Shown here piece by piece: positions 8,735 through 59,205 of a stretch of DNA of 64,000 nt. The stretch covers positions 2,062 through 66,061 of the forward strand of contig JAIRRP010000052.1 in the NCBI GenBank assembly GCA_031255915.1. Reading direction: 5' to 3'. The position numbers and the translations under genes were made by a program. The number at the start of each line of letters is the position of its first letter. Position 1 is the stretch's first letter. Origin of the DNA: Puniceicoccales bacterium. GTDB taxonomy: Bacteria; Verrucomicrobiota; Verrucomicrobiia; Opitutales; JAIRLG01. Under the pieces are notes generated by a model. The model was not told the DNA's origin. It did not search any database and saw only the letters and a list, made by a program, of their open reading frames with translations.

Positions 8735-9556
8735 ATGTACCTATCTTTTTTTGGATTTTCTGAAAAACCATTTACCATTAAGCCCAATAAGCACTTGCTG
8801 TTCTTGGGTTCTCCTCATGTCTCGGCGCTATCATTGCTCTGCTATGGCGTGGAAAACAACGATGGCTTTACGGTCATCGTGGGTGAAGTGGGTTGCGGCA
8901 AGACCACCTTATGCCAAGCATTACTAGACCAACTAGATGCCAAAAAATACTTCCCCATTTATCTCCCCATTCCTCCCCAGACAGAAGAAGAACTACTCGC
9001 CTCCTTCATCAGTACGTTCGACATCCAAGAAGTATCATCCGGTAACATCGTCGAGACTCGAAAAGGCATCAAGCAAAAACTCACGTACTACAACCGGCAA
9101 CGCAAACGTGTCCTGCTCATCGTCGATGAAGCGCAAAATCTGTCCAATGCGATGCTGGAAAACATACGTCTGCTCTCCAATATCGAGATCAATGGCAACC
9201 GCGCCATGCACATTATCCTATTGGGACAACCAGAATTGAAACAACACCTGCGACAACGGTGCATGCGCCAGCTACGGCAAAGGATATCCGTCTTTCAGGA
9301 ATTAAGACCATTGAATGCGCGCGAAACGCGACATTATATTCAACACCACTTGAGTCTCGTGCAGACGGAACACATATCACTATTCACCTATTGGGCGATG
9401 CATAAGATTTTCTCCCTGAGCAAAGGTGTCCCGAGAATTATCAATAATATCTGTGATAAATCATTGATATCCGCCTACGTGCGCAATTCCTATAAGGTGA
9501 AGCGTCGCGATGTCGTCCGAGCCTTCCAAGAAATTCAGCAGATAGAAGAATCATGA
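8735..9556 (+). CDS. gspA: ExeA/GspA-like AAA ATPase (type II secretion accessory)
   Basis: The N-terminus MYLSFFGFSEKPFTIKPN resembles ExeA. Walker A is GEVGCGKTT and Walker B is LLIVDEAQNL. Confidence 0.75.
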   Translation: MYLSFFGFSEKPFTIKPNKHLLFLGSPHVSALSLLCYGVENNDGFTVIVGEVGCGKTTLCQALLDQLDAKKYFPIYLPIPPQTEEELLASFISTFDIQEVSSGNIVETRKGIKQKLTYYNRQRKRVLLIVDEAQNLSNAMLENIRLLSNIEINGNRAMHIILLGQPELKQHLRQRCMRQLRQRISVFQELRPLNARETRHYIQHHLSLVQTEHISLFTYWAMHKIFSLSKGVPRIINNICDKSLISAYVRNSYKVKRRDVVRAFQEIQQIEES

Positions 9557-10204: not shown

Positions 10205-10249
10205 TTTTTTTTGCATCTGAAGAAAAAATATACTAGGAATAACGAAATT
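10205..10249 (+). promoter_or_regulatory. conserved upstream block of the three-member secreted family (copy 1)
   Basis: TTTTTTTTGCATCTGAAGAAAAAATATACTAGGAATAACGAAATT lies directly before the ATG. Near-identical blocks precede the two paralogs at 22133..22181 and 24542..24592 (minus strand). Confidence 0.4.
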
Positions 10250-14758: not shown

Positions 14759-16435
14759 ATGGTAAGGATAAGGACAGGGAAGATAGGGAATGCAGATCAA
14801 GAAGTGTCAAAGACGGGAAAGAATGCACGTAGCATCAAGTCCTATAAAGGTGATCAAAGCATCGCTAGAAAATCTGGATCATCGAGCTTTATAGAGAGCC
14901 TCAATGGTAAAGGTCTCAAAGGGTTTATTGCTAGTAAGACAGGACTACTAGGCAGATTATCCGGTAACCACACTGCAAAGATGAAAATCATGCAAGCGGT
15001 ATCCAATATGACGAAGGATATCGTTAATGATGATGATAGAGAAATCGCCGGTAAAGATTTTATCAGAAGCGAGTTTAAAGAAGTAGCCCAAGATCCTAGA
15101 TACAAGCACCTTGTTGCAAGTGCCCTGGGTTCAGCTATGGGTGGTGCAGCTTGGATTAAGAAAAGAGATGCTAATGGCGATGCGACTGCTCTCTCAAAAA
15201 ATGCGCTCGAAACCTTTATGAACCTTGTCGAGGAGGGTGTTTTGACAGATAAAGACATACAAACAGTCATGGAAAAACTAGGCCCAAAGGGGACTGGTGC
15301 CCTGCAGAACCCAGATTCTCCATTCTGGAAAGGCCTTCAGAAACTTTCTGAGGAATCGCGCGTCAAGTTGGCCGACATCATCCTTACATCTCAGACTTAT
15401 CAGGAAAAGAATGCACGACTTCAGGAAATAAAGACAACATTGAATAACGCCATTAGTGGAGATAAACCCCTGGCAGAGTTAAATAGTGCTCTCTTTGACT
15501 GTGACGACGTAGAGAAACAATACCTTCTTGAGAGGAATGGATTCCAAATACCTCAAAATATCGATACCCTCGAAATGTGCGATCATAAGATTAAGGAAAT
15601 AACCACCGATTTTCGAGGTGGAGCAAGAGGAGTACGTGATGGAGTAGCAGACAGCGAAGCTCTCGCTAAGCACCTCGCCGATAAAACGAAACAGGTCCTT
15701 CAAAACGCCCCGAAAAATACTGAGGTACAAAAAGCGTTGACCCAATGCCAAGAATTATTCGCCGAAGCCCAAGGTCTAGAAAAAGAGATTTTCTCGCTCC
15801 GGTCGAGTATCATAAATGGTCAGCACGGCTACTCACTTGAAAAGGCTTTGGATAAAAAAATTGCAGATGACAAGAAGTTAGGAAAAGCTGGTATCACCAC
15901 CTATACGGAGTGGCTGGCAAAAATTACAGAAAGGACCAAGAAAAAACATGACATAGATGATGACATAGCAAAGGCACTTTCGTTAGAGCTAAATGACCCT
16001 CAACGACTACCAGAAATCAATAAATGCGCCAATAAGCTCATAGATTATGCCGATTTTTTCATCAAAAATGCAAAGATAGAAGAGGACATCATGGCCAATC
16101 GAGATGCTCTAAAACTACCCAAACCTCCTATGAATGAAGTGTTTTCTCAAGGCGGTACGGGCGATCTCTTGCAATTTGGCATTAATCAATGTATAAAGTT
16201 ATTAACAGAGGGCATAAAGAGTGCGATTCAAGTCCACGTTCCCGAGGGCAAACTAGAAGCATTTACTAAAAAACTTGACATTATCCAAGCACAAGGTTCA
16301 TCGGGTGGGCTGATGCGTTTTATAAAAAATGTAGCCCAAAATCCAAGAACCTATGGTTTACCAGAAGATTTTCAAATACCAGATAGCCTGAATCAGCTCG
16401 TGGATATCGCTGAAGAATTCAACAAGTTTGCCTAA
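14759..16435 (+). CDS. large hypothetical protein (effector-like, Lys/Glu-rich helical)
   Basis: 558-aa ORF with AGGGAAGG upstream of the ATG, a Ser/Lys-rich disordered N-terminus, and no recognisable motif. Confidence 0.6.
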   Translation: MVRIRTGKIGNADQEVSKTGKNARSIKSYKGDQSIARKSGSSSFIESLNGKGLKGFIASKTGLLGRLSGNHTAKMKIMQAVSNMTKDIVNDDDREIAGKDFIRSEFKEVAQDPRYKHLVASALGSAMGGAAWIKKRDANGDATALSKNALETFMNLVEEGVLTDKDIQTVMEKLGPKGTGALQNPDSPFWKGLQKLSEESRVKLADIILTSQTYQEKNARLQEIKTTLNNAISGDKPLAELNSALFDCDDVEKQYLLERNGFQIPQNIDTLEMCDHKIKEITTDFRGGARGVRDGVADSEALAKHLADKTKQVLQNAPKNTEVQKALTQCQELFAEAQGLEKEIFSLRSSIINGQHGYSLEKALDKKIADDKKLGKAGITTYTEWLAKITERTKKKHDIDDDIAKALSLELNDPQRLPEINKCANKLIDYADFFIKNAKIEEDIMANRDALKLPKPPMNEVFSQGGTGDLLQFGINQCIKLLTEGIKSAIQVHVPEGKLEAFTKKLDIIQAQGSSGGLMRFIKNVAQNPRTYGLPEDFQIPDSLNQLVDIAEEFNKFA

Positions 16436-30295: not shown

Positions 30296-30816
30296 AAAAG
30301 AGATTGTCCTTTGCGGCACGGGGAAAGCTGGTTTTGGGACAAGGAGTGCACCTATCTTTTAGAACATTAAATTTGGTCAGGAGTGGCTGTGGCTATTTTA
30401 CTATGTTGAAAAGAATAAAAGGTATATATGAAAATCCCACAGATCTCCGATATTTGGGATGAAAAGCGAGCTCGGGTAAAAGGAGAATAGTTTTTTATTT
30501 ACTCAGGAGCTCCGATGAGGGAAATAACTACAGGAAGAGAGGATATTATACGATGTACAAAAACCTCTCTGCCTTGTTGTGTACCCTTAGAAACATTATA
30601 CGTTTAGTAGGTAAACGGACCAGGCGATCTACAGCACATAGCAAAATCTGACGACCGCTGCTTTCTTCCGAACCTGACGGAGTTAGCCGACTTGTTATTG
30701 CACAGAACCCAGCCCGAAATATTAATGGGAAGAAGTCAAAGAAAAAGGCAATGCAAAAATTTTCTTCCTGACTTTCTTCCTGAAATGGTTCTTTTTTGAG
30801 GGATAAAAAGGAGAAC

Positions 30817-35850: not shown

Positions 35851-37599
35851 TCACAGATGGAGAATATCCGGCCGGAACGAGATTTTGAGATGGTAATACT
35901 TCCCTGGCAGCAGAAAAATAGGATTAGTTCGAGACAGAATCTGCAAGAAATGGATATGCCCATAAGGAGTTCTGTAGGCCGGATCATCGGCAACCGTGAT
36001 GAGTTCCTTCCACGCCATACCAAAATCATCCTTCTCGACAACCGCTCGCAGGCTCTCCTCTCCCAGCATAAGACTATGAGCACTGAGAACCGAATGAGGA
36101 GCCGAGAGCGCAATGACATAGCGCACCTGATCGACCTTGAGTCGATTCCGAACCACATAGACAAATTCTGAAGTGATGCCCTCCTCTGAGAATGCCCATG
36201 AGACGCGACAACGAGCCAGATCGGGCACAATGACTTCCCGATGGCTGATCAATTCCGGCTGATCATAATGAAAGGAAAAGGAACGCTTCAATCCCATGCC
36301 CGTAGCGCAATTTTTTCCGTAAAACGAAGGGACAAAGAGCTGCCCATTAATGGTCAGTTCGGGCTGCAGGATGGGCAAATAGGTATCCGCCGGGGCATCG
36401 AAAATTCCGGGACAATGGGGAAACGCCAGGCTGTCGCAGGAACCTTTTCCGCCACCTGATATGAGGGGCAGTGCATAATGCGTGCCCTTTTGGGAATTGC
36501 GATAGACAAAAATTCCCTGCTCTTTTTTGATGCTGCGGTCAAATTGAACCAACCGGCCACCTGTCTTTTCTTCAAGACCGGTATCATCCAATGGCAGTGA
36601 TATTTTCTTGGCCAACATCGCCCACTGACAGAGGTAGCGTACGGCATCGAAATTAGCCCTACGGGTGGAGAAAATGACCGGCATTGTCCGTTCTCGATCT
36701 CGAATCACAATGGTGCCGTGGCCCTGGTCGACGTAATGCAAAAAGAAATAATGAAAAAGCCTGCGAATGAGGCTTATGTATAGCGTCTGTTTATCGCTGC
36801 CGACCCATCCCTCCGAAAGGGCCAGTATTGCCGCATTAAGCGTGTAGAGCTGCGCATAAAACCCCGTGTGCTTCCCATAAGCCCAGGCAAGACCATCCGT
36901 GCGAACAAGTTCTGGCAGAAGACAAAGATAACATCCCCCATAAGTTCGGATACTCGGAAGAAGGCGTTTGGTGACATCGCTGTTGATATGCATTCGCATT
37001 ACCTGCTGGACGAAGTTCAATATCCATAGGCCGATGATGTCGTAACAACCTCCGATGCCCTCTTCCGGAGCGCTGTCCATAAAACCATTGGTCATCTTCT
37101 TCGAGACATGGCCTAAAAAAGCTTCGACGAGTGGTAAGGTTTCGTCTTTTTTCGAAAAACCCATGTTGAAGCCGACGAAGGACCTCACAACATCCGATAG
37201 GATACCGTGACCACCCTGCCGAGGATGAAGCATTCGCTCTGTCACCAATGCCTGTGTTTCCTGATCCAGGCTTTGCCAAAGAGGATTACGAGCACATGTG
37301 GTTCCGAAACAGAGCAACGTCAAGGAAGCACAACTCGATGCGATGTCATCCGTAAGCGGGATATAGAGTTGTGAACGAACACATCGGGCTGCCAGTTCGG
37401 GTAACTGAAAGTCACTGAGCTGAAGCTCTTGTAGGCAACGATAATACTCTCCGATGGAAAAAGCGGCATAGGCGGAATCCTCTAACGCAAGAGATTCTCC
37501 TTCCGCCGGAAGGACATCACCATTTTCAGCGATAAAGGGCAAGCTTTGTCCCAAGACAGCTCGCGCTAAATCGATGCATTGCTGTGAAAAATTTTGCAT
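35851..37599 (-). CDS. hypothetical protein (582 aa), co-directional and immediately downstream of the secretin
   Basis: Long uninterrupted ORF with no signal peptide or motif recognised. The N-half looks helical and aromatic-rich and the C-half beta-rich (by eye only). Confidence 0.6.
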   Translation of the reverse strand: MQNFSQQCIDLARAVLGQSLPFIAENGDVLPAEGESLALEDSAYAAFSIGEYYRCLQELQLSDFQLPELAARCVRSQLYIPLTDDIASSCASLTLLCFGTTCARNPLWQSLDQETQALVTERMLHPRQGGHGILSDVVRSFVGFNMGFSKKDETLPLVEAFLGHVSKKMTNGFMDSAPEEGIGGCYDIIGLWILNFVQQVMRMHINSDVTKRLLPSIRTYGGCYLCLLPELVRTDGLAWAYGKHTGFYAQLYTLNAAILALSEGWVGSDKQTLYISLIRRLFHYFFLHYVDQGHGTIVIRDRERTMPVIFSTRRANFDAVRYLCQWAMLAKKISLPLDDTGLEEKTGGRLVQFDRSIKKEQGIFVYRNSQKGTHYALPLISGGGKGSCDSLAFPHCPGIFDAPADTYLPILQPELTINGQLFVPSFYGKNCATGMGLKRSFSFHYDQPELISHREVIVPDLARCRVSWAFSEEGITSEFVYVVRNRLKVDQVRYVIALSAPHSVLSAHSLMLGEESLRAVVEKDDFGMAWKELITVADDPAYRTPYGHIHFLQILSRTNPIFLLPGKYYHLKISFRPDILHL

Positions 37600-37711: not shown

Positions 37712-37856
37712 TTCGGAGGACGTCGTCAAAAAAGTTTAACAAAGGGAAAAAGAGAGGAAAGATGGAATGGAAAAGAAGACATATAGGAGACATAACCTAT
37801 TAGGTGAGTGGAACAAGATGAGAAGGTTGCTATCTGGTTTTAACGACACACTCTAA
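37712..37856. repeat. AT-rich palindromic MITE-like repeat, copy D (variant subtype shared with copy A)
   Basis: ttcggaggacgtcgtcaaaaaagtttaacaaagggaaaaagagagg...gtggaacaagatgagaagg...ttttaacgacacactctaa. The secretin stop codon (cta at 37853..37855 on the plus strand) lies in its terminal ctctaa. Confidence 0.75.
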
Positions 37857-40069
37857 TGCCCACGTCGATGCCGGTACTTCCACTTGGCAGTGGGCGGGAC
37901 AATGGCGCGCTTTTCCGGCATGGATGGCTCCAGGAGCGAATTTTCCGATGCTTCTGCCGGCATTTCTCTATTGGTATCCTTCAACGGCATACCATCGGCC
38001 GAGAGGATATTGGCCGTGACGAAGATCAGGAGATTTTTCTTTTGCGTTGTCTCGCCGTGGGAACGAAACAGTTTCCCCAACAGAGGAAGATCACCGAGAA
38101 TGGGAACCTTATCATGAACTTCTTTGGCCTCCTTGTGCATGAGGCCGCCCATCACAACCGTAGAACCATCCTGAATGGTGAGTTCTGTCTTGATCTCTCG
38201 GATGGAAAAAATGGGCTGATAAAATCCCGAGGGTGTGTAGACAGTCTGGCTCGAATTCATGGCGACGCTCGTACCTCCATATTCGACGAATCCCTCGAAC
38301 TCCGTGACGACGGGGTTGAGCCGCAAGTCGATATGTCCATTATCTTCTACGGTGGGGATAGCGGACATCTCGATGCCTACTTTGCGCGTCTGAAAATTCT
38401 CAGGCCGGCCAGCGGTAATCGTAACACCGGCGCCAGAGTTGTTAATACTAGAGCTCCCCACGTCGGATTTCGTCTCACTATAACGGGCCGGGTAACGCAG
38501 TTCCTGTGCGACGGTGATGGAGGCCATTTTTCCCGAAAGGACCGTGATTTTTGGAGCACATATCATTTCGGCCCCCGTGTTTTGTTCAAGCGCCTTCATC
38601 ATGAGATTCAACTTACCACCACTGATGACGCCTACGAAATCTCCGAGAGGAACGGCGTTGTTGCCGTAATTGGCAGCATGAGGAAAAATGGGAGGACTGT
38701 TATCGATGGAAACGCCATCCGCATTACCGGCAGAGGGCACGATGCGTCCCTTACCCATCGAAGTCCTCTGGGTGGCAAAGGCTTCGGTTAATGTGCGGAT
38801 GTTCGTCGTGAAATTTCCGTCCCTGTCGCTACCGGAACCGAAGCGCCAAGTGTTCCCTCCTGCTGTGAGACCCTTTTTAAATCCCCACTGAAGGGCAAAT
38901 TCATCCAGGGCACCTTCTTGGATTTCAACGAAGCGTGTCTCGATTTCCACCTGCTTGGTTTCGCGATAACGGCACAAAATAGTGCCCAATCGACGGAGGT
39001 TAAAGGGCGTGTGGGTTACGATTAATTGCGTTCCATCGAAAACCATATCGCTGCCGGCAGTCCCGTGAAAATCGATACCTGCCCGCTGGAAGAAGTTTTT
39101 GAGGTATGCCTCTTCAAGGACTATGGTAGGGGGATGGGTATCCGAGGAAGAGGACATCGGAGGATCATCCGAGACTTTTCCCATGATTCTAACGACCGTT
39201 CCGCGCGAGATGGGAAAAAATCTCGTCTCGAGGGCACTGGGTTCTTTGGGATTAAAAAACACGACGGCACCATCGATGATATCGAATTGGTAGTGAACCG
39301 CTTTAGCGACGAAGCGCAGTATGCGCTCCAGTGACATGCCACAGAGTCGCAACGTGAGCGTCGTAGAGGGGACATTTCCCAAAACGACCATATTGAATCC
39401 CCTCTTCTCCGGCGAGAGAGAGGGGTCATCGTGCCGTATCGCCATTTCCTTAAGCACTTCTATGGCATGCCCAAAGCTGGCTCCCTGGAACTCGATTTCC
39501 GGCAGTACGATGCTTTGGAGCCTTTTTATAATGGCGGTTTCCTCGTCCATGTCCTGACAGGAAGTTTTTTCTGAAGTATTTTGAATCATGGGCCATTTAC
39601 CTGAAGGAAGATATGAGGTCTTCGGCTGCGATTTTCTGTATTTCGCACCGTCATCCTGCCTTCGTTTGGCAAGACAGAGTCGTTCTCCCGCCCTTGCATC
39701 GGCCGAGTTTTCGTCCAGATAAAGTACATGGCGGAAGCAGAGTAGGGCCCTATCAATCTGGCCAAAGGTGTAGAATTTATATCCGAGCGCCAGCCATTCC
39801 TGGGAGGAATTTTCCCAGGAAGAGGATGCTGCTTGGTCGGGAATATTGTTTTCGGAAGAGGGAAGTATATGACTTGGTCGGGTATTTACGGGAAAAGAGG
39901 TTGCTGGATTGGGATTTTTATGGTGGATTAGGGGGGAATCCGAGTAGGTACCCGAGAGGCTTATTTTCTGGATAAACCTGCCGAGGGTTTCCCCATGGCT
40001 GAGGGTGTGGAAATGGCAGCAACAGACTATCCCAAAAAGGAGCCACTCTCTGCACTTTTTTTTCACCAT
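37853..40069 (-). CDS. gspD: secretin (GspD/PilQ family) with N-terminal TPR-like segment
   Basis: C-terminal secretin signature GSTVVMGGLMHKEAKEVHDKVPILGDLPLLGKLFRSHGETTQKKNLLIFVTANIL, with KQVEIETRFVEIQEGALDEFALQW at the domain start. TPR-like WLALGYKFYTFGQIDRALLCFRHVLYLDENSADA. The start was set to the ATG at 40069 (AGGGAGGA upstream, MVKKKCREWLLFGIVCC signal-like) because upstream codons come from repeat R2. Confidence 0.85.
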   Translation of the reverse strand: MVKKKCREWLLFGIVCCCHFHTLSHGETLGRFIQKISLSGTYSDSPLIHHKNPNPATSFPVNTRPSHILPSSENNIPDQAASSSWENSSQEWLALGYKFYTFGQIDRALLCFRHVLYLDENSADARAGERLCLAKRRQDDGAKYRKSQPKTSYLPSGKWPMIQNTSEKTSCQDMDEETAIIKRLQSIVLPEIEFQGASFGHAIEVLKEMAIRHDDPSLSPEKRGFNMVVLGNVPSTTLTLRLCGMSLERILRFVAKAVHYQFDIIDGAVVFFNPKEPSALETRFFPISRGTVVRIMGKVSDDPPMSSSSDTHPPTIVLEEAYLKNFFQRAGIDFHGTAGSDMVFDGTQLIVTHTPFNLRRLGTILCRYRETKQVEIETRFVEIQEGALDEFALQWGFKKGLTAGGNTWRFGSGSDRDGNFTTNIRTLTEAFATQRTSMGKGRIVPSAGNADGVSIDNSPPIFPHAANYGNNAVPLGDFVGVISGGKLNLMMKALEQNTGAEMICAPKITVLSGKMASITVAQELRYPARYSETKSDVGSSSINNSGAGVTITAGRPENFQTRKVGIEMSAIPTVEDNGHIDLRLNPVVTEFEGFVEYGGTSVAMNSSQTVYTPSGFYQPIFSIREIKTELTIQDGSTVVMGGLMHKEAKEVHDKVPILGDLPLLGKLFRSHGETTQKKNLLIFVTANILSADGMPLKDTNREMPAEASENSLLEPSMPEKRAIVPPTAKWKYRHRRGH

Positions 40070-40231
40070 ATCCTCCCTAAAATCTTTAGGCTTTAGGCTA
40101 GAATTTTCAAGGAAATAAGAAGGTATAACAGGGGATGCGGCGCGACGGTTTTTTGACAAAGGCTTCGTCACTATTTTGTTGGCCCGGAGAAGGAAATGGA
40201 TGATCCTGACCTTGGGGTGCTCTGCTGGCCT

Positions 40232-40332
40232 GGCCGCCTTTGCGGCGAGGAAAAAATGTAAAGCGGGAGCTTTCATTTTTTCTTGCCGCGGCCCGCATAG
40301 CGGGCCAGAGCCCGAAGGGCTCAAAGGCGGCC
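40232..40332 (-). repeat. GC-rich cloverleaf-like repeat, copy R2 (inverted orientation)
   Basis: ggccgcctttgcggcgaggaaaaaatgtaaagcgggagctttcattttttcttgccgcggcccgcatagcgggccagagcccgaagggctcaaaggcggcc. Its reverse complement is collinear with R4/R5. Confidence 0.85.
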
Positions 40333-40522
40333 AGCCCGACCGATCGACCGGAGACGCTGCCCAGATAATCGCACAAATGCCCATGCGCCTAACGCGAATA
40401 ACCCCAGCCCATCGGAGACGCTTGCCTAGACGCAGGCTCCATTCGCCCGAAGAAAATAATACCACTCCATAAAGTTCATTTACGCCGGTATTTTCTTCCC
40501 CATATTCCCAGAGGTTTACATC

Positions 40523-41410
40523 ATGGAACGCTACCTCCTCATCGATGGACTCAATCTCGCCTATCGTTGCTTTTTCGCCGTCCCAAGACTCACCAACCGA
40601 GAAGGTCTAGCCATCAATGCCCTTCAGGGCTGGGTGAGGGCATTGTGGAATTTGGAAGATTACCTCCAACCGCAAGGGGTTGTCGTCTTCTTCGACCAGG
40701 GAATATCTGTCCAACGGCGAGTACTTCTGGAAACCTATAAGGCCAACCGGCCCCCGATGCCGGAAGCCCTCTGTCAACAACTATCGCCGGCAAAAGAACT
40801 GGCACGATACATGGGCTATGCCCTCTATTCACAAGAGGGGATTGAGGCCGATGATCTCATGGCCTCAACGGCGCAATACTATTCCTCTTCCCGAAATATC
40901 TTCATCGCCAGTGCCGATAAGGACCTCGCCCAGTGCGTTGGGAAAAACGTATCTCTCCTGCGCCCATCGCAGCTTCCTCAGGCATCGTGGAAAATCTTCG
41001 ACACCCAACAGGTAAAACAACACTGGGGCATCGAACCTGCCCAAATGGTCGATTATCTCGCCCTCGTCGGAGATATTTCCGATAACGTACCAGGAATCCC
41101 CGGCATAGGCCCCAAAACTGCCCAGAAGTGGCTCCAATCCTTCACCACCATCGAAGGAATTTATTCCCACCTAGGGCAGATATCTCCCATTCGCTTTGCG
41201 AAGTCACTCCCTCTGTATCGAGGGCAACTGGAAATGAATCGCAAGCTCATCCAACTCGACCGGACGTTATCTGTCCCATCCCTGAGTTTCCCCATGCCTC
41301 AGGGTGAACAACTGGCGACTTTACTGCAAGAACTCGGACTCACCGCTCTCGCCACAAAAGCTCGCAGTCGATATGAAAAAAATACCGGACAGTTATCTTT
41401 TAACCTTTAG
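40523..41410 (+). CDS. standalone 5'-3' exonuclease (PolI N-terminal/FEN-like)
   Basis: YLLIDGLNLAYRCFFA, GIEADDLMAS, ASADKDLAQCV and the H3TH motif VGDISDNVPGIPGIGPKTAQKWL. Confidence 0.85.
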   Translation: MERYLLIDGLNLAYRCFFAVPRLTNREGLAINALQGWVRALWNLEDYLQPQGVVVFFDQGISVQRRVLLETYKANRPPMPEALCQQLSPAKELARYMGYALYSQEGIEADDLMASTAQYYSSSRNIFIASADKDLAQCVGKNVSLLRPSQLPQASWKIFDTQQVKQHWGIEPAQMVDYLALVGDISDNVPGIPGIGPKTAQKWLQSFTTIEGIYSHLGQISPIRFAKSLPLYRGQLEMNRKLIQLDRTLSVPSLSFPMPQGEQLATLLQELGLTALATKARSRYEKNTGQLSFNL

Positions 41411-41427
41411 TATTTCAGGATTCATCG

Positions 41428-43545
41428 ATGGAAATGCGAGCACCTAGGAGAAGAGTCGTCAAAATGTATCGGGCATATCTTCCCCATTTATTAGCATGGA
41501 CACTACGGTGTTGGGTTGCCCTTTATCCGCAGGCCACGGATGCCGCCGAGGGTATTTACGGCTTTTCCCTTCACGACTTACTCTCTTCCCAAACCACCGA
41601 CCATTCTCCTTATGCCGCGAACCCTCGTCGGGCGTGGACAATGCCCTTCAATGCCCTCATGGTGGCCGCCTGCGCGTACTCCTCCTCTTCTCCATACACC
41701 ACCTCAGGGTATGGCCCACAGGCATCCGTTTTCCCCTTTTTATCAGAAAGGGAAATCTTTGCCCACCACTCACGAACCATTTTACAGCTGCTCACCAAGC
41801 TCTTCTACTTCGAAGAGCATCCCATCCTCAATAAAGAGCAGAAGGAAAAAGCGCGCATCCTGGCATCAAGGGAATGTGTGCCCAACCATCGCGATGTGCT
41901 GCATGACCTGAAGGCAACATTGGCCACTTGGCTGACACTCTATCGCGGACGAAGATTGAGGTGGCAGCACAACACGACACCGCTTTCCAAAGCCTTTCAG
42001 TGGGCCCTTTGGCGTACCTGTCCTTCGGCTGACCCACGGGCCTTTATTCCCCTGGAAGAATGGTATATTCGCATCCACAGCCTGCGGCAAGCACTGTCTC
42101 GCCATCTTTCATCACCATTACACCCCATAGGCAATACTTCCTCTTCCATCTCACCGCCTATACCTCCCCTAACCGCCAAGGGAAAGTATCATCAAATTCT
42201 GCAAGGGCTCGACGACCTTGGAAATGAATGGATTCTCAAGCCATTTCACTTCCAGGAGCATGTCGGAGGTTGCCTCTGCAGCGGTGTATTGCCGCATCTC
42301 TCTCATCTTATCGGCCGCAACGTCATGAGCTATCGCCTGGGAGAATGGATCTGTCCCGGAATGGTCGTCGAAACATACCCATGCCTCATCCCAAATTTTA
42401 CAGCCGAGACCTCTCATCTCAAGACTTTTTCCCTGGGCATATGCATGAGGAAGGCGCGAGGAATTCCCTTCACTTATTATTGGAAACCAAGAACAGAGCA
42501 GGACCATAAGTGCGCAAAACTGGATCAAGAGAGGGACATCGTTCTCTACATATTAAGCCAACTTGTGGCGGGAAAGCGTCCCGACGAGCCGCTGGAATCG
42601 CTTCGGAAAAGCGACGAACTCAACACCCTCTTCGCCTCGGATGGTGCCGAATTACAAGGCGCTCTGGCACAGTGGCAATCCCTCTCTTCCGTGATAAAAA
42701 CTCTTTTTTTCGATGCCTGGAAACGTTACGAAGCGGAAGTAAATCAACTTCACCAGCGGCTCTCTCCGGGTACTCTGGTCCGCAACATCACGCGGATGCA
42801 ATGGCTCGATGCGCTCCTGCTACAGGGCGATCGGCATCATCATAATTTTTATGTCGCCATCGACGAAAATCCCTATGCGATCCAGTTGATCGACAATGAC
42901 CAGTGCCTGGGTCCACTCCACCCAAAATCGCATTATACTGCATTTCCCGCAAAGATTTTTGAAGAGCAGATGGGCGTATCACTCGATGACTACTTCCGCA
43001 ATCGAGGGCCGACCATTGCTGAATTATGGGCCCACCATGGAGGAAAATCCGTCGCTCCTCTTCCGCAAATCATCGACGAAACCACGGCTAAAAATTTTGA
43101 GCATTGTTCTTCAGAAATAGCAGCATCGCTGGCCGATGGTTGGCTGCTACCGGAAGAAATTTCCGCCCTACAGCACCGTCTACAGGCCATCCAAGCATTT
43201 ATAGCACTATTGAGAACTCGCCATCGCGTCATTCCTGAAGACCCCTCTCTTTGGGAAAATTCGTCCATCACCGCCCTCTTGCAATTCCATGATCCGGAGA
43301 TATACGATCCCTTGTGGCCCGAGACTATGTACATTCGAAATTCCTCCGAGAAAACCCAGAGCAATCCCATTCGCGTCCTGACGCTCTACCAGAAACTCTG
43401 CCGAGAAAAAGACCGGGAGCAGAATACGTACCACCAACTGAGAGCCTGTGTCGATGTTCTGCCAAAGTCCGTAATGCCCGAAAAAGCCTCTCCAAAGGAA
43501 TCCTCTTCGGCTTCATCCTCTGTTTCGGCCGGGCGCCGCCTTTGA
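41428..43545 (+). CDS. hypothetical protein with kinase-like catalytic loop (PI3/PI4-kinase type GDRHxxN ... IDND)
   Basis: 705 aa. LLLQGDRHHHNFYVAIDENPYAIQLIDNDQCLG spans residues 463-495 (42814..42912). A candidate ATP-Lys lies in NEWILKPFHF. The last 3 codons and the stop are supplied by repeat R3. Confidence 0.6.
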   Translation: MEMRAPRRRVVKMYRAYLPHLLAWTLRCWVALYPQATDAAEGIYGFSLHDLLSSQTTDHSPYAANPRRAWTMPFNALMVAACAYSSSSPYTTSGYGPQASVFPFLSEREIFAHHSRTILQLLTKLFYFEEHPILNKEQKEKARILASRECVPNHRDVLHDLKATLATWLTLYRGRRLRWQHNTTPLSKAFQWALWRTCPSADPRAFIPLEEWYIRIHSLRQALSRHLSSPLHPIGNTSSSISPPIPPLTAKGKYHQILQGLDDLGNEWILKPFHFQEHVGGCLCSGVLPHLSHLIGRNVMSYRLGEWICPGMVVETYPCLIPNFTAETSHLKTFSLGICMRKARGIPFTYYWKPRTEQDHKCAKLDQERDIVLYILSQLVAGKRPDEPLESLRKSDELNTLFASDGAELQGALAQWQSLSSVIKTLFFDAWKRYEAEVNQLHQRLSPGTLVRNITRMQWLDALLLQGDRHHHNFYVAIDENPYAIQLIDNDQCLGPLHPKSHYTAFPAKIFEEQMGVSLDDYFRNRGPTIAELWAHHGGKSVAPLPQIIDETTAKNFEHCSSEIAASLADGWLLPEEISALQHRLQAIQAFIALLRTRHRVIPEDPSLWENSSITALLQFHDPEIYDPLWPETMYIRNSSEKTQSNPIRVLTLYQKLCREKDREQNTYHQLRACVDVLPKSVMPEKASPKESSSASSSVSAGRRL

Positions 43546-43634
43546 GCCCAAAGGGCTCTTGCCCGCTATGCGGGCCGTGGTAGGGAAAAATGCAAAGCGG
43601 GAGCTTTCATCTTTCCCTACCACAAAGGCGGCGC
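43533..43634 (+). repeat. GC-rich cloverleaf-like repeat, copy R3 (apex of the long hairpin inverted)
   Basis: The arms are collinear with R5, but the central 15-mer reads caaagcgggagcttt, the exact reverse complement of aaagctcccgctttg in R1/R4/R5. Confidence 0.85.
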
Positions 43635-43754
43635 GCCGGATCCTCCCGAGCGCGAGAGCGAGAAAATGCGCGAAAAAAACACAGGAGGTATGAAAAAGCT
43701 AATCTTGACGGAGACATTCGAGATGGTTACCTCTTCAGATCCATAAGGACTTGT

Positions 43755-43952
43755 ATGTTGAAAACGAGAAAATCAATAGCGAAGCGATTCAAGATTACCG
43801 GTAGCGGCAAGGTCCTGCACCGCACGCCGGGACATCGCCACTTTTTGCGCACTAAGACCACCCAACAACGCCGCATGGCACATCAGGATCATCCCATAGC
43901 ATCGAATGGGCTCAGAAAACAAATCTTGCGAGCCATCGCGGTAGGCCTTTAG
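43755..43952 (+). CDS. rpmI: 50S ribosomal protein L35
   Basis: MLKTRKSIAKRFKITGSGKVLHRTPGHRHFLRTKTTQQRR. AAGGA lies upstream of the ATG at 43755. The listed longer ORF begins inside repeat R3. Confidence 0.9.
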   Translation: MLKTRKSIAKRFKITGSGKVLHRTPGHRHFLRTKTTQQRRMAHQDHPIASNGLRKQILRAIAVGL

Positions 43953-44041: not shown

Positions 44042-44404
44042 ATGCCAAGAGCTACAAATGCTGTTGCAACCCATCGGCGTCATCGCCGAACTTTGAAAGC
44101 GACTCGCGGTTATTTTGGAAATAAATCGCGACTCTTTCGCTATGCCCGAGAAGCTTTAAGGCGTTCCGGACAGTTTGCCTACCGCGACCGGCGCAAAAAA
44201 AAGACGGAAATGCGTCAGCTATGGATCATCCGCCTCAATGCCGCGTGTCGGCCTTCGGGTCTACCGTATTGCCGCTTCATCGCCGGCCTCAAGGCGGCGA
44301 ACATCTCATTGGATCGCAAATCCCTAAGTGAAATGGCCATCCATGATCCGGAAGCCTTTCGTTCCATCGTCGTGCGCGCTCAAGAAGCGCTCTCACAGCA
44401 ATAG
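44042..44404 (+). CDS. rplT: 50S ribosomal protein L20
   Basis: MPRATNAVATHRRHRRTLKATRGYFGNKSRLFRYAREALRRSGQFAYRDRRKKK ... LWIIRLNAA. Confidence 0.95.
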   Translation: MPRATNAVATHRRHRRTLKATRGYFGNKSRLFRYAREALRRSGQFAYRDRRKKKTEMRQLWIIRLNAACRPSGLPYCRFIAGLKAANISLDRKSLSEMAIHDPEAFRSIVVRAQEALSQQ

Positions 44405-44414
44405 TCCCCTCGCC

Positions 44415-45746
44415 ATGAGTGATGAACAGGAGCGCTGGAAGGCACTTATTCGCCATATGTTCGCCCAGGCGGAGCGAAATCGAGCTAATCATACGGAAGG
44501 TACGGCCGATGACCATGGACCTGAAGTAGGTCTTTTGGCTTCTGAATATGGGGGAAAAGCATTCCCAAAAGAAGCCCTGGAACAGTTGCTGAAACAAATG
44601 CTCCAGCGGCTCGGAAACAGCGAAGGTCTTCAGGGTTCCCTCTCCTCTGTGCTTTCCTCCCTCGCGCCCAATTCGCAATTGCATCAACTCATCGACAGTT
44701 ACCTACGGGAGCATTCCATGGAAGCCCTGATTATTCAGGCAAAGGCAGAACTCGCATCCCTGCAACGGCGGCAGGATTGGGAAGCCAGTAAGGCGCGTTT
44801 CCTGGGCCCCAATGGTTCTCTTCGGACATTCATGAAGGGGCTCCAGCAGCTGCCTCCCGACCAACGTCCCGCATTCGGACAGAAGATCAATGCGATTAAA
44901 ATCGCCCTTGAATCCCTCTTTTCAGACAAGCTCAAGGCCATCGAAGGCGACCTATTACGGCAGCAATTGCCACTTCCTGTCGACATCACATTAAGGCCAC
45001 GTACCTCCGCCAATGGCTGTTTACACCCCCTCACACAGTTGCGCCATCGCATCGACGACATCTTTCACCGCATGGGCTATACCATTGCCGATGGCAGCGA
45101 AATAGAGACCGAATGGTTTTGTTTCGACGCACTGAATACTCCGCCCAACCATCCCGCCCGCAACGAACAGGATACGTTCTATCTCCCGCCAGATATTCCG
45201 GTTGGCAACGTGAGTCGTCGCGAAAAAGAACGCTACCTCCTGCGCTCGCATACCTCTACGGTCCAAATTCGCACAATGCTGTCGGAACATCCACCTCTGA
45301 GCATTGTCTCGCGTGGACGTGTCTTCCGACGCGACACCCCTGATGCGACACACAGCGCCAATTTTCATCAATACGAAGGCCTCCGCGTCGATCGACAGAT
45401 TTCCTTCGCCGATCTCAAAAATACCCTCTTTTTTTTCCTGAAAGAGCTCTTTGGCGATACCATTCGCATACGTCTCCGACCCAGCTTCTTCCCCTTCACA
45501 GAACCCAGTTTTGAGGTGGATATTCAATCGCCCTCCATGGGAAAACTCAGCCATCAATGGATAGAGGTTCTCGGTTGTGGCATGGTCGATCCGGAGGTTT
45601 TCCGTGCCGTGGACTACGATCCCCAAGCGTGGAATGGCTTCGCCTTTGGTATCGGCCTAGAGCGCATCGCCATATTCCTCTATGGCCTAGAGGATGTGCG
45701 GCATTTCTACCGCAATGATCAGCGCTTTTTGAAACAATTCGCATAG
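44415..45746 (+). CDS. pheS: phenylalanine--tRNA ligase alpha subunit (with possible ~100-aa N-terminal extension)
   Basis: Class II core HPARNEQDTFY, LLRSHTSTVQIR, GRVFRRD, FEVD and FGIGLERIA. Canonical PheS aligns from the Met at 44718 (MEALIIQAKAELASL...), but the frame is open and protein-like from the ATG at 44415. No pheT follows. Confidence 0.85.
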   Translation: MSDEQERWKALIRHMFAQAERNRANHTEGTADDHGPEVGLLASEYGGKAFPKEALEQLLKQMLQRLGNSEGLQGSLSSVLSSLAPNSQLHQLIDSYLREHSMEALIIQAKAELASLQRRQDWEASKARFLGPNGSLRTFMKGLQQLPPDQRPAFGQKINAIKIALESLFSDKLKAIEGDLLRQQLPLPVDITLRPRTSANGCLHPLTQLRHRIDDIFHRMGYTIADGSEIETEWFCFDALNTPPNHPARNEQDTFYLPPDIPVGNVSRREKERYLLRSHTSTVQIRTMLSEHPPLSIVSRGRVFRRDTPDATHSANFHQYEGLRVDRQISFADLKNTLFFFLKELFGDTIRIRLRPSFFPFTEPSFEVDIQSPSMGKLSHQWIEVLGCGMVDPEVFRAVDYDPQAWNGFAFGIGLERIAIFLYGLEDVRHFYRNDQRFLKQFA

Positions 45747-47695: not shown

Positions 47696-47772
<77 letters not shown>

Positions 47773-47794
47773 AAATCGCACCACGCGAAGCATA

Positions 47795-47880
47795 TGGTGC
47801 CCAGGGCGGGACTCGAACCCGCACGTCCTTACAGACAAAGGATTTTAAGTCCTCAGCGTCTACCATTCCGCCACCAGGGC
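47795..47880 (-). tRNA. tRNA-Leu (anticodon UAA), long variable arm
   Basis: The reverse complement reads GCCCTGGTGGCGGAATGGTAGACGCTGAGGACTTAAAATCCTTTGTCTGTAAGGACGTGCGGGTTCGAGTCCCGCCCTGGGCACCA, with anticodon loop CTTAAAA. Confidence 0.9.
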
Positions 47881-48036: not shown

Positions 48037-50376
48037 TTACTGAGTAACTCTGTCTGGACTTACAACCTCACTCCAGGTTTCCCGGAATGCTTCTCCGAGC
48101 AGAGGAGTTATTCCTCGATCTTGATTTTGGGCCTGACCCTGATTACATAGGGCATCATTCCACACCCACCAATCGATATCTAACATCTCCAACTGGGTAT
48201 CTATCTCTATCTGCTGCTCTTCCGTTAAATTCCGATTTTGTCTTTTTTCTAATAAATGGTTCATCGCCGCCACCTTCAGCTCCCGCAACTTCGCATAAGC
48301 CTCCCCCTCCTTATAAGTCCCCCACTCAGCAAGATCCTCTCCCTCAGCAGAAAACCATTGCCAATTAAAAAGATCACTCTTTTCTGCCATATCAACATAT
48401 TGACAGGTAAAATGGTCTTTGCAATTCCAACCGACGATTTCCTCTGTATAAGTATTATCTACACTATTATGTACAATATCATATACAGGGTTAGACTCAT
48501 CATACGGAATTATATAAGGAATTTCACCCTGCACACGCCAGAACCTGAAATTTGGATTACCAAACTTATGATAATTCGGTTCATAAGTATAATAAATTTT
48601 ATCGAAATACGCATGGTTTAGGATTGTCAAAAATGCTCTGTAATGATCATTTTTCTGAATATCAGGATAAACTTTAGCTAAATACCTCAGCTCTAGGAGA
48701 CGAGTACCGGCTAAATTTAGACAAGACGAGGGCAGAGGTTGTTGCGGTGAATTTTCCTCTCCGGAGAATTCCATACCGAAGGTTTCATCACCCTCCAATT
48801 TTCTTTGAAGCACGACAAAATGCATCTCCACTCCCTGCGGATGTATCAAAAAGAAGCAAACGCTTTGCGGAGACCCATCCTTCAAGCGATCCAGCAAATC
48901 CGGCGTTAAGGCATACCACTCACAGGCATCTTTTGCCTCTTGAAGATTATTCAGACTATTTTCAGGAACCACATTCCTCAATAGAGGGACACCTATTCCG
49001 GATATAGCCGGAAAGTTTCGGCATAAAAGACCAGCCTTCTGGTCATAATATCGGTTCCAGCCATCGGGTGTAGCCAAAATGACCGCCACGGGGATCTGCT
49101 GCCCAATAGGAGCCGATAGAGGCAACGAAAGCCCTTGTATGCTATTGTCGTCGTATTTCAATATGAAAAACTGGAGCGTTATCCGCGATAATGGCAGCCC
49201 AAGACGATTCGCTAAAACTGAACAGTCCCATCCTCCAAGAGACGAGGGATCTGGCAAAATGTCTAACACATTTTTACCCGTAAAAAACCTGTTCCGCATG
49301 CCAGGAAGTTCATTCCAAAAGACCCTCTCCCTGGCTAGTTCTTCACGAAATCTCTCTAAACTGATGCCAGCCACATGAAGAGACATCGTTGTGTTGTTAA
49401 AATCTTTAAAAGATGGATTTTTTCCAAAAGTCTCTTGCATTTTTATTTCCGCCTTTCCCAGTGAATTCCAACCATTTCCTAGTTTTCCATACAACGAGAG
49501 CATCGTGCAATTTTTCACCAAAGGATGTTCCGGAACTGGCGCCGGCTGTGTCACTACTGGTCGTGGCTGATTTACCGGTTGTGATGGCGGCAAATTTGGG
49601 AGGCTCACAGGTGGCTGTGATGTCGGTTGTTGCGCCACTGGTGAAGATATAGGAATTATCCTACCGTCGAGCGCTTGCCGGTAATTTGCAGGCACTACAC
49701 TACTTATTTGATTCGAAAGATTTCCCTGTTTTCCACGCATAAAAATGTACTTTATCTGACCTAAAACGACATAGACCTGCATAAAAAATTGTTCATTCTC
49801 ACGATGTGAGACAATAAATGGCTTCTCTGTGGAAATATTATTGATTAAAATATTAAAATCTTGCTCTCCATTCCCCGTGATTTTGTGTTGGCCCTGCGTT
49901 ACTGAGGAGTCATAAAACACCCAAGTTTCGCTGCTGTTAGAACTTTCTGTAACGCTCAATTTAAAGTTCAATGTACGGGTTGGTTGGGTTCGGGTATCTC
50001 CTGATCCTAAATAGAGCATCCTATAGACCACCGACACATTTTGAAGAGGGTAATTGCTCTTCACCGTCTGACGCGCTCTAGCTATCTGTGGCAAGATTTC
50101 CTTTTTATTTATTTTTTCCAATATGCCCTGCATAATATTTCCAGCTTGATACTGAGAACTTTCATTGAATATCGCACCATAGTCTGGAAATTGCATCCAT
50201 AATTTATTATTGTCGTAGTCACCAATTCCGTCATCGCGGGTATTTTCATCGTAAGGCACCCACTGATTACCTTGCTTTATGGACACCGTCACCTTGCCCG
50301 CCGACATCGAGGAAACTCCCATCACACAACAGACGCCCGCAAGCGCCCACAAACGAATATATTTTTGTAATAACAT
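48037..50376 (-). CDS. large secreted hypothetical protein (779 aa)
   Basis: Signal peptide MLLQKYIRLWALAGVCCVMGVSSMSAGK and a central Pro/Gln tract AQQPTSQPPVSLPNLPPSQPVNQPRPVVTQPAPVPEHP. Visibly A+T-rich, adjacent to the tRNA pair, with no recognisable motif. Confidence 0.65.
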   Translation of the reverse strand: MLLQKYIRLWALAGVCCVMGVSSMSAGKVTVSIKQGNQWVPYDENTRDDGIGDYDNNKLWMQFPDYGAIFNESSQYQAGNIMQGILEKINKKEILPQIARARQTVKSNYPLQNVSVVYRMLYLGSGDTRTQPTRTLNFKLSVTESSNSSETWVFYDSSVTQGQHKITGNGEQDFNILINNISTEKPFIVSHRENEQFFMQVYVVLGQIKYIFMRGKQGNLSNQISSVVPANYRQALDGRIIPISSPVAQQPTSQPPVSLPNLPPSQPVNQPRPVVTQPAPVPEHPLVKNCTMLSLYGKLGNGWNSLGKAEIKMQETFGKNPSFKDFNNTTMSLHVAGISLERFREELARERVFWNELPGMRNRFFTGKNVLDILPDPSSLGGWDCSVLANRLGLPLSRITLQFFILKYDDNSIQGLSLPLSAPIGQQIPVAVILATPDGWNRYYDQKAGLLCRNFPAISGIGVPLLRNVVPENSLNNLQEAKDACEWYALTPDLLDRLKDGSPQSVCFFLIHPQGVEMHFVVLQRKLEGDETFGMEFSGEENSPQQPLPSSCLNLAGTRLLELRYLAKVYPDIQKNDHYRAFLTILNHAYFDKIYYTYEPNYHKFGNPNFRFWRVQGEIPYIIPYDESNPVYDIVHNSVDNTYTEEIVGWNCKDHFTCQYVDMAEKSDLFNWQWFSAEGEDLAEWGTYKEGEAYAKLRELKVAAMNHLLEKRQNRNLTEEQQIEIDTQLEMLDIDWWVWNDALCNQGQAQNQDRGITPLLGEAFRETWSEVVSPDRVTQ

Positions 50377-58392: not shown

Positions 58393-59205
58393 TTAAGGGG
58401 AAGTCCCGTTACGGCTCAATGAAGCTTGTGGAGGAGTTACCCCGTTGGTATTTCCACTTTGAGGTGTTGTCGATGACCATTCCGGCGCCTTGAACGGATG
58501 ACGGCTATGTTTCTTCAAGTAGATGAACCACTGCGTTTTGTCCTCAAATTGCAAGTAGAACCCTTCCGGTGGGTTCATCTTCCCCGAAGACGGTTTTATG
58601 GGCTGCAAAACGATATCCCATTTATCGCTGTCGAAGGTATAGTAGGCATAACCAAAATATATGCAGTGATGGAACAAAACCACATGCTCCGTGGCCGGAA
58701 GCCGCCAACGGCCGACTTTCGTATCCAGAGGCAAAAGGCGGTAGTGCAACCTTACACACTGCTTTTGGGCCTCGTATTCTAGATGGTACTCGATCACTTT
58801 CCCCTGTGGATTGCGGATAAACGGAGGCGTTGTGGAATTCTGCCAATACAGATGGAAATTATCCGGCGATGGATCCATATCTGTCCAATAGGGCCCTAAA
58901 TCTGTGTCTGAATTTTTGGAGCGAATCAAGGAGGCATACATTCCGTGTAATTTCACATAAGATTCCCGCAGGCTGTCTTCCAAAAACTTCTTCGCCACCA
59001 CCTGACCTTCCTCTTCCCAGTCCGGCTGTGCTTCGCGCTCCCACAATTCCACAAAGGTGGTGATCAGAGATACCGCCGCGAGTAAGACGCTGCCACCTAG
59101 CGCCAAGGCCAAGAGCATTTCGATCAGTGAAAACCCATTTCGTTTCACGTAGAGAGTTCTAGCCACATTTTGATAACTGTCAACGCGGCGAAAATGTCGC
59201 TCCAC
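58393..59205 (-). CDS. pseudopilin-like protein (prepilin-type N-terminal domain)
   Basis: KRNG|FSLIEMLLALALGGSVLLAAVSLI has Gly-1, Phe+1 and Glu+5. The rest is unrecognised. Confidence 0.65.
   Translation of the reverse strand: MERHFRRVDSYQNVARTLYVKRNGFSLIEMLLALALGGSVLLAAVSLITTFVELWEREAQPDWEEEGQVVAKKFLEDSLRESYVKLHGMYASLIRSKNSDTDLGPYWTDMDPSPDNFHLYWQNSTTPPFIRNPQGKVIEYHLEYEAQKQCVRLHYRLLPLDTKVGRWRLPATEHVVLFHHCIYFGYAYYTFDSDKWDIVLQPIKPSSGKMNPPEGFYLQFEDKTQWFIYLKKHSRHPFKAPEWSSTTPQSGNTNGVTPPQASLSRNGTSP

Follow-up and report, generated by a model that had tools for sequence, protein, structure and literature searches.

The stretch of DNA analysed here, referred to as the window, is 64,000 nucleotides of contig JAIRRP010000052.1 from a Puniceicoccales bacterium (assembly GCA_031255915.1). 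The gene under study is an intact open reading frame (ORF) of 705 aa at 41428..43545 on the forward strand. The gene directly upstream encodes a stand-alone 5'-3' exonuclease, with a gap of 18 bp between its stop codon and the start of the ORF, and the genes that follow are rpmI, rplT and pheS. An AGGA precedes the ATG at 41428 by 7 nt. An identical NCBI protein from a Puniceicoccales metagenome-assembled genome (MAG; locus tag LBG98_02390) is annotated as a hypothetical protein that starts at M13 and is 693 aa in length. The GC content of the gene is 0.51-0.54, equal to that of its flanks, and no paralog of it is found within the window. Within the kinase-like superfamily, the encoded protein falls in the PI3K/PI4K-PI4KII-Fam20 neighbourhood as a very divergent member. 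It is also a credible candidate for a protein that these bacteria use on a protist host.

Residues 467-491 of the protein read GDRHHHNFYVAIDENPYAIQLIDND (nt 42826..42900). A previous sequence-only reading of this DNA had recognised in them the catalytic loop and metal-binding element of a PI3K/PI4K-type kinase, and both the ORF and the letters of the motif are as it described. Given the amino-acid composition of the window, the chance expectation of DRHxxN with [ILV]D[FN][DG] 8-30 residues further on is ~5e-6 per 705 aa and ~2e-4 across the window ORFs of at least 100 aa, among which the combined motif is seen once. The sequence NEWILKPF is present upstream of the catalytic loop, and its lysine, which had been proposed as the ATP lysine, is indeed the conserved beta3 lysine, though its residue number is K271 rather than K272.

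A search of 5.8 billion clustered proteins identified seven close homologs with 47-66% identity, and those with an organism name all belong to Puniceicoccales MAGs. Three blocks are invariant in this close family: W.LK.FHFQEH.GG, which contains K271; QGDRH..NFYV, which contains D468, R469, H470 and N473; and QLID.DQCLGP, which contains D489 and D491. G467 is likewise invariant in the seven homologs. When the close-family profile was searched against 1.84 billion cluster representatives, a wider family of 222 proteins was found at E <= 1e-3, with 30 of them at E <= 1e-10. The regions common to the wider family are the catalytic segment and a second, C-terminal block, and its motifs (GSGAFNxVY, VFKP, RN.A...VP.TE, LG.VM..A.G, GQGDRHxxNYF, GIDNDQCFG and LP.VID) form a complete kinase layout. 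In broad alignments of 25, 86 and 148 sequences with ~20-25% identity to the window protein, the residues G252, K271, R297, the hinge glycines, D468, R469, H470, N473, D489, D491, P546, D550, E577 and R584 either do not vary or reach at least 90% conservation, and beside the metal-binding Asp there is a conserved Cys (C493). G252 and K271 show no variation in the set of 25, and G467 is also conserved at 90% or more in the set of 148. A word-indexed homolog search with the 25-sequence alignment added four distant proteins and was dominated by the variable N-termini. A non-circular test was made with a profile built from 140 distant relatives only, against which the window protein scored 145.6 bits with aa ~251-622 aligned continuously. 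The statement of the sequence-only reading that the rest of the protein is without recognisable similarity does not hold, since aa ~250-680 are homologous to the 222 representatives of the wider family. Direct searches with the window protein (phmmer against PDB and NCBIfam) provided nothing significant and neither did the close-family profile against PDB, where no solved structure is a sequence-level relative. Because G252, K271, D468, R469, H470, N473, D489 and D491 are near-invariant, the enzyme is probably active.

Structural prediction with AlphaFold2 (AF2) from the 148-sequence alignment gave a mean predicted local distance difference test (pLDDT) score of 78.8 and a predicted TM-score (pTM) of 0.81, with the core of residues 250-630 mostly above 90. 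A model built from 7 sequences was poor (pLDDT 56). The elements of the model follow the protein-kinase-like order of strands, the K271 strand, helix 294-308, strands, the hinge, helices, the loop at 466-473, two short strands, D489 and the C-lobe helices. All of the top 50 PDB entries identified by Foldseek are kinase-like folds. The protein kinase mTOR and other phosphatidylinositol 3-kinase-related kinases (PIKKs) are at the top of the list (E ~9e-4), and PI4KIIalpha is the best match when the TM-score is normalised to the target (TMt 0.42, prob 1.00, E = 1.6e-3), while Fam20A/C are matched with prob 1.00 and TMt 0.35-0.39. The matches further include macrolide phosphotransferases and MAP kinases, and in BFVD, phage proteins with a PI3K/PI4K domain rank second and third. 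Structure prediction, Foldseek and profile comparison thus identify a bilobal kinase-like fold, which can be predicted for this protein with near certainty. HipA and APH were considered as specific families and rejected, as neither has a Pfam match to the protein or its relatives and the macrolide phosphotransferases match the general fold only.

Family assignment depends largely on the relatives. At E <= 0.01, PF00454 is matched by 47 of 86 relatives (best 2.8e-7), Fam20C by seven (best 2.2e-4) and CotH by one. TIGR03843, the SCO1664 family, is matched by 37 of the 86 with a best E-value of 1.5e-10. One relative, P0012 from Prosthecodimorpha staleyi, carries the UniRef name PI3K/PI4K catalytic domain-containing protein. 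The window protein has a partial match to PF00454 (aa 436-502 to profile positions 118-180 of 241) and a second Pfam match to Fam20C (13.8 bits, E = 0.045, cutoff 26.8), with both matches falling over aa ~432-502. As judged from these profiles, the link to PF00454 is transitive, through the relatives. The comparison of the family profile with PI4KIIalpha by hhalign gave a probability of 74% over 78 columns and aligned DRHHHN/IDND with DRGNDN/IDNG, continuing onward into the LP block; the PI4KIIalpha sequence was confirmed to be identical to residues 120-383 of 4hnd_A. In the search of the profile against PDB, 4hnd was found at E = 1.3. The proposal of a PI3K/PI4K-type catalytic loop and metal-binding element is therefore borne out by conservation, the AF2 model, Foldseek, the PF00454 matches of the relatives and hhalign. 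PF00454 includes protein kinases such as mTOR and other PIKKs, and Fam20C and CotH are protein kinases. Because the neighbourhood holds both lipid and protein kinases, the fold does not settle whether the substrate is a lipid or a protein. Literature searches found no publication on the wider family, on the function of SCO1664/TIGR03843, or on T3SS effectors resembling PI4K or Fam20 (T3SS, type III secretion system).

The first 39 residues of the protein are composed of a basic n-region (RAPRRRVVK), a hydrophobic stretch (AYLPHLLAWTLRCWVALY) and the sequence T-D-A|A, which reads ...PQATDA|AEG in the window copy, and AF2 places a helix at 8-32 within this segment. Every full-length close homolog features a basic segment, a hydrophobic stretch of ~15 aa, and T-x-A or A-x-A. 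This pattern, read by a hydropathy heuristic and inspection, is that of a candidate cleavable Sec signal peptide. RRRVVK of the window copy could point to a Tat signal, which was rejected because the other homologs are without twin arginines. Following a linker, the domain at aa 105-230 exhibits conserved patterns such as PSAD.RAF.PLEEW in the seven close homologs, with no Pfam match and no alignment to the distant family. The elements of the kinase N-lobe are the Gly-loop with G252, K271 (nt 42238-42240, in W.LKPF), the helix with R297/N298 and the hinge LG..M..A.G (G337-G345). AF2 predicts strands at 256-261 and 267-272, a helix at 294-308, and strands at 316-322 and 333-341. The lobe aligns with GSGAFNxVY...VFKP of the distant family, with K271 aligned to VFKP. 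The insertion that follows the hinge contains helices at 364-381, 395-403, 407-418 and 421-444 with pLDDT ~90. A second family-specific insertion, of ~25 aa relative to the distant-relative profile, follows the metal-binding element, which has the form DND and not DFG. The C-lobe block has the pattern GGKS.APLPQIID..TA ... LLP.EI.AL..RL..IQ, in which P546, D550, E577 and R584 are located. The coordinates of these features and of other features discussed below are given in Table 1.

Table 1. Features of the kinase gene, of the surrounding window and of loci encoding distant relatives. Coordinates are those of the window unless a locus is named.
Feature	Position (nt)	Strand	Basis or remarks
Whole ORF, 705 aa	41428..43545	+	alternative start M13 at 41464 (NCBI), giving 693 aa
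Sec-signal-peptide-like N-terminus, aa 1-39	41428..41544	+	hydropathy heuristic and inspection
Linker, aa 40-104, poorly conserved, low confidence	41545..41739	+	pLDDT < 50 for 40-82 and 84-101; variable among close homologs
Clade-specific N-terminal alpha/beta domain, aa 105-230	41740..42117	+	conserved in 7 close homologs; pLDDT ~70-90
Kinase N-lobe, aa 250-345	42175..42462	+	columns >= 90% conserved; AF2 strands/helix
Family-specific helical insertion, aa ~347-446, hinge to pre-catalytic-loop helix	42466..42765	+	~90 residues extra relative to distant-relative profile
Catalytic loop QGDRHHHN, aa 466-473	42823..42846	+	D468, R469, H470, N473 (near-)invariant
Metal-binding element IDND, aa 488-491, then QCLGP	42889..42900	+	D489 equivalent to DFG-Asp; D491 second invariant acid
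C-lobe conserved block, aa 537-600	43036..43227	+	>= 90% conserved, pLDDT > 90; second stretch common with distant family
C-terminal tail, aa ~680-705, Ser-rich, unconserved, low confidence	43465..43542	+	sequence, alignment, pLDDT
Stand-alone 5'-3' exonuclease (upstream neighbour)	40523..41410	+	PF02739, PF01367
rpmI	about 43755-43952	+	Pfam L35p
rplT	44042-44404	+	Pfam L20
pheS	44328-45746	+	Pfam tRNA-synt_2d; ORF with N-terminal extension
TLC-type ATP/ADP translocase (NTT), 507 aa	56123..57646	-	PF03219, E = 6.2e-173
Large orphan ORFs	10211-12289 (+), 12367-14559 (+), 14759-16435 (+), 19997-22132 (-), 22355-24541 (-), 35851-37599 (-), 48037-50376 (-)		no Pfam match
Secretin, two prepilin-motif proteins, AAA_22 ATPase	37853-40465 (-); 28194-29048 (+); 58393-59205 (-); 8735-9556 (+)		
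Bacterial small SRP RNA; tRNA-Glu, tRNA-Pro, tRNA-Leu genes	30615-30714 (-); 25889-25966 (+); 47696-47880 (-)		Rfam
Kinase modules with CesT and ~180-aa partner in T3SS loci	L008 836-6262; L009 332-6251		
Tandem kinase pair with partner between	L004 6684-11549		

Several distant relatives are encoded within T3SS loci. The gene for P0041, a protein with a SicP-binding (T3SS chaperone-binding) N-terminus, is located directly behind a CesT chaperone gene and adjoins the genes for SctF, needle_E, SctD and SctV. P0016 and P0020 belong to two tandem modules, each composed of a kinase gene, an ORF of ~180 aa and a CesT gene, that are found beside SctF and SctD genes. The closest outgroup pair, P0009/P0010, is a tandem duplicate with a ~180-aa partner ORF between the two genes (L004). 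These partner ORFs are homologous to each other and have a common GxxGHGxxS block, with no Pfam match and no counterpart anywhere in the window. Because relatives lie in T3SS loci with CesT genes and one has a SicP-binding N-terminus, the wider family is read here as carrying the genomic signature of type III secreted effectors. By the same comparison of N-termini and gene neighbours, the termite-clade protein appears as a stand-alone derivative with a different, Sec-like N-terminus. The proteins of the CesT-kinase-partner modules and P0009/P0010 are homologous to the window protein throughout the kinase domain, with E-values from the close-family profile of 1e-10 to 1e-23, and the invariant residues are the same in both. 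They differ in their hydrophilic or SicP-binding N-termini, the adjoining CesT gene and the ~180-aa partner, none of which is featured by the window protein, while the latter has its own N-terminal domain and two insertions.

The window does not encode T3SS, type IV (T4SS) or type VI secretion system (T6SS) genes, and what was identified is limited to a secretin of the type IV pilus type and pilin-like genes. The secretin belongs to the Amuc_1098 family of type IV pilus/type II secretion system (T2SS)-type secretins and is accompanied elsewhere in the window by two proteins with a prepilin N-methylation motif and an AAA_22 ATPase. It is possible that these are components of a pilus or T2SS-like route that releases Sec-exported proteins. 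In a related, strongly reduced verrucomicrobial genome (CP095464.1, complete, 878,461 bp, MAG: Verrucomicrobiota bacterium), locus L011 (8413-10313, - strand) encodes a CesT-family T3SS chaperone, with an orphan ORF of 436 aa downstream on the same strand, beside pheS. This arrangement suggests that T3SS effectors exist in reduced Verrucomicrobiota.

The genome scan for the close family identified three Puniceicoccales MAGs only. This was a pattern scan, which within its sensitivity did not detect the family in the other 185,579 GTDB species representatives. Cerasicoccus is without a close-family gene at its rpmI locus. The lower termites Procryptotermes leewardensis and Roisinitermes ebogoensis are the source of the kinase-carrying MAGs. 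Among the other genes of the window is one for an NTT, a hallmark of obligate intracellular bacteria. Mies et al. 2024 (PMC11257099) found NTTs in termite-gut Opitutales whose occurrence is confined to lower termites, and they consider these bacteria, among them the endonuclear Ca. Nucleococcus, to be putative endosymbionts of flagellates. The bacteria that carry the kinase probably live inside gut flagellates as symbionts. Of the ORFs in the window, seven large ones (558-779 aa) are without a Pfam match. A 791-aa orphan gene in locus L001 has a matching position after a FabH-like gene and may, by position, be the counterpart of the 779-aa ORF of the window. This unusual density of large orphan proteins could yield further symbiosis or effector candidates.

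The adjacency of exonuclease and kinase genes is kept in the homolog loci L001, L002 and L003, and the two genes are probably co-transcribed. The complete order exonuclease-kinase-rpmI-rplT-pheS is kept in the homolog loci at 47-56% protein identity, and because of this the gene is considered a long-standing, syntenic component of the clade's genomes that was not recently inserted. The sequence-only reading had placed the gene where infC belongs and described it as apparently inserted there. This must be abandoned, since the gene order is kept across the clade, the GC content matches the flanks, and the free-living outgroup Cerasicoccus arenae encodes serA-plsY upstream of rpmI, not infC. No infC was found in the window or the homolog loci by tblastn with an approximate E. 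coli IF3 query. The rpmI ORF as called (43590-43952, + strand) is 120 aa long with the L35 domain starting from ~residue 57; the true start is probably an ATG near 43755 (MLKTRKSIAKRF...), in which case ~210 bp of non-coding DNA separate the kinase gene from rpmI. Neither a Rfam element nor a consensus terminator was identified in this gap, and scans for promoters and terminators returned numbers comparable to those in shuffled sequence. The only Rfam features in the window are tRNAs and the SRP RNA. PheS of this clade features an N-terminal extension of ~100 aa, resulting in 442-446 aa compared with the usual 346-350 aa, that is found only in the four closest relatives (P0178-P0181). PheS identity to other Puniceicoccales falls to <= 58%, which, as a sequence measure, indicates a long, distinct branch.

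The closest described architecture is that of PF00454 and PI4KIIalpha (PDB 4HND/4HNE), which also feature a bilobal fold, a beta3 lysine and a DR(H/G)xxN loop. In common with PI4KIIalpha, the window protein carries IDN(D/G) instead of DFG, and an LP... block and a C-terminal helix come after it. The translated sequence is, however, without the CCPCC palmitoylation motif of PI4KIIalpha, and it has DRH as in PI3K and type III PI4K, whereas the type II enzyme has DRG. Further differences from PI4KIIalpha are the invariant D491, C493, the ~90-aa helical insertion, the signal-peptide-like N-terminus and the clade-specific N-terminal domain. Bacterial effectors with phosphoinositide kinase activity include Francisella OpiA, Legionella LegA5 and Rickettsia Risk1 (PI3K) and Legionella LepB (PI4K); they have been recognised by PF00454-type catalytic and activation loops, and the His of the catalytic loop is the kinase-dead site in Risk1 (PMC7298712). 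The window protein is, by description, similar to OpiA, LegA5, Risk1, LepB and MavQ in its PF00454-type loops, its probable intracellular setting and an otherwise orphan sequence. Those effectors belong to pathogens and depend on T4SS or T6SS, whereas the window protein has a Sec-type N-terminus and a probable mutualistic protist symbiont as its source. None of their chains is among the PDB profile matches at E <= 10, a search in which their presence in PDB is not established.

The reading we favour, and hold tentatively, is that the gene product is an atypical kinase, catalytically competent and exported, that acts on the host side, on phosphoinositides or on host proteins. Its parts differ in strength: export is somewhat favoured by the N-terminal sequences, a host-directed role is an open possibility that falls a little short of being probable, and a phosphoinositide substrate is conceivable but rather doubtful. 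The protein would carry a Sec-type signal peptide, probably cleaved after A39, and the mature protein would be composed of the disordered linker, the clade-specific N-terminal domain and the bilobal kinase-like domain at aa ~250-680. ATP would be bound between the lobes by the G252 loop, K271 and the hinge at G337-G345. N473 and D489 would hold Mg2+, while D468, together with R469 and H470, would act on the acceptor hydroxyl and D491 would serve as a second conserved acid. The kinase would then be released to the host side, where it would phosphorylate phosphoinositides of host membranes as first choice and host proteins as second. This role would parallel that of the distant relatives that resemble type III secreted effectors. 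We infer the host-directed role from the effector signature of the relatives, from the NTT encoded on the contig of the kinase gene and from PF00454-type effectors published for other bacteria. A kinase that is exported would not necessarily be short of ATP, because an NTT-bearing symbiont must presumably pass host ATP through its outer membrane. A more specific version is considerably less probable. It supposes that a kinase from a T3SS-effector family was re-tooled for Sec export by intracellular, possibly intranuclear, verrucomicrobial symbionts of flagellates and kept through genome reduction as a host-directed phosphoinositide kinase that acts in the host or in an ATP-supplied periplasm.

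Several points weigh against the favoured reading. The signal-peptide call is a heuristic one, and the hydrophobic stretch of the window copy is the weakest of the family (KD 1.17). The fold was read from the element order and Foldseek. The window protein scores 14.2 bits against PF00454 (E = 0.041), below the cutoff of 27.1, and NCBIfam gives it no match. The matches to PIKKs, to Fam20C/CotH and, for 37 of 86 relatives, to SCO1664 leave the substrate unreadable from homology. The surroundings of the kinase gene are a housekeeping neighbourhood, and no T3SS, chaperone or ~180-aa partner gene is located near it in the window or in L001-L003. The endosymbiont status of the carrier MAGs is putative, and a GC content of ~51% is not strongly reduced.

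The nearest alternative, which we regard as rather unlikely, is a protein kinase of the Fam20C/CotH type that is secreted or resides in the periplasm and has host proteins or the bacterium's own envelope or surface proteins as substrates. Fam20C is the second Pfam match of the window protein and is matched by seven of the 86 relatives, with one further match to CotH, and Fam20A/C are among the best structural matches. The signal-peptide-like N-terminus would also fit, as Fam20C is exported by a signal peptide. The pattern DRHH...(L/I)DN(G/D) resembles DRHHYE...DNG, the Fam20C motif. Furthermore, PF00454 itself holds protein kinases (mTOR and the PIKKs), which top the Foldseek list, and with an NTT encoded in the window the periplasm could contain host ATP. 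Against this, the PF00454 matches of the relatives are both more numerous (47 vs 7) and stronger (2.8e-7 vs 2.2e-4), and the Asn of the lipid-kinase DRHxxN motif is present here as the invariant N473, a position at which Fam20C has Glu. The Fam20 N-terminal segments are absent from the window protein and all matches to Fam20C/CotH are below threshold. The settings differ as well, Fam20C belonging to the eukaryotic secretory pathway and CotH to the Bacillus spore coat. A housekeeping kinase that stays with the cell is less likely again. Such an enzyme would be cytoplasmic or anchored by an N-terminal helix, would have a bacterial lipid, an envelope precursor or a small molecule as its substrate, and would be co-expressed with the exonuclease and ribosomal-protein genes. 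The conserved position between the exonuclease gene and rpmI-rplT-pheS, the absence of adjoining secretion-system genes and the weak hydrophobic stretch of the window copy are in its favour. So are the 37 relatives that match SCO1664, a family of free-living Actinobacteria that is itself uncharacterised and that the window protein does not match, and the presence of small-molecule kinases among kinase-like folds, with macrolide phosphotransferases among the Foldseek matches. However, the close family is limited to one small host-associated clade, which is unexpected for a housekeeping function, and the distant relatives are T3SS-linked. The cleavage-type TxA/AxA motifs after the hydrophobic stretch in all full-length close homologs, and the disordered, fast-evolving N-terminal ~100 aa that are typical of exported or effector proteins, also argue against retention in the cell.

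It is improbable that the fold serves another chemistry, such as AMPylation or glutamylation, or that the protein is a pseudokinase or binding scaffold. SelO and SidJ are precedents for AMPylation or glutamylation-type chemistry by atypical kinase folds, and the strong divergence of the family, the second invariant acid D491, the conserved C493 beside the metal-binding Asp and the large family-specific insertions would be compatible with this. The set of Gly-loop, Lys, DRHxxN and Asp residues is nevertheless intact and strongly conserved, whereas pseudokinases usually lose part of it. The explanation that a spurious or decaying ORF carries the motif by chance, with which the annotation as hypothetical protein and the lack of a curated family match would agree, has a negligible probability. 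It is already refuted by conservation over the full length of seven homologs at 47-66% identity, by the motif statistics (chance expectation ~5e-6), by the confident structure model and by the 145 bits scored against an independent profile.

The fold, the catalytic motif and the existence of bacterial PI3K/PI4K-like effectors are of a known kind. New are a subfamily with a Sec-like N-terminus, its own N-terminal domain, insertions and a D-x-D element, its restriction to probable endosymbionts of protists, and its link to an undescribed T3SS-associated chaperone-kinase-partner family. The molecular interaction of termite-gut flagellate endosymbionts with their hosts is almost unknown, as published genome studies centre on metabolism and transporters, and a conserved, apparently exported and apparently active kinase in an NTT-carrying clade is a concrete candidate for such an interaction. 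A further outcome of the analysis is the wider kinase family, with 222 cluster representatives, that is without a name in curated database models and that in part takes the form of chaperone-kinase-partner modules within T3SS loci. If the protein is a protein kinase or a cell-bound enzyme, the outcome would be a more ordinary one, namely another divergent kinase-fold family. If it is instead a lipid-kinase effector that was re-tooled for Sec export, it would be the first of this type known from a mutualistic endosymbiont of protists, and it would expose an undescribed CesT-kinase-partner family of effectors.

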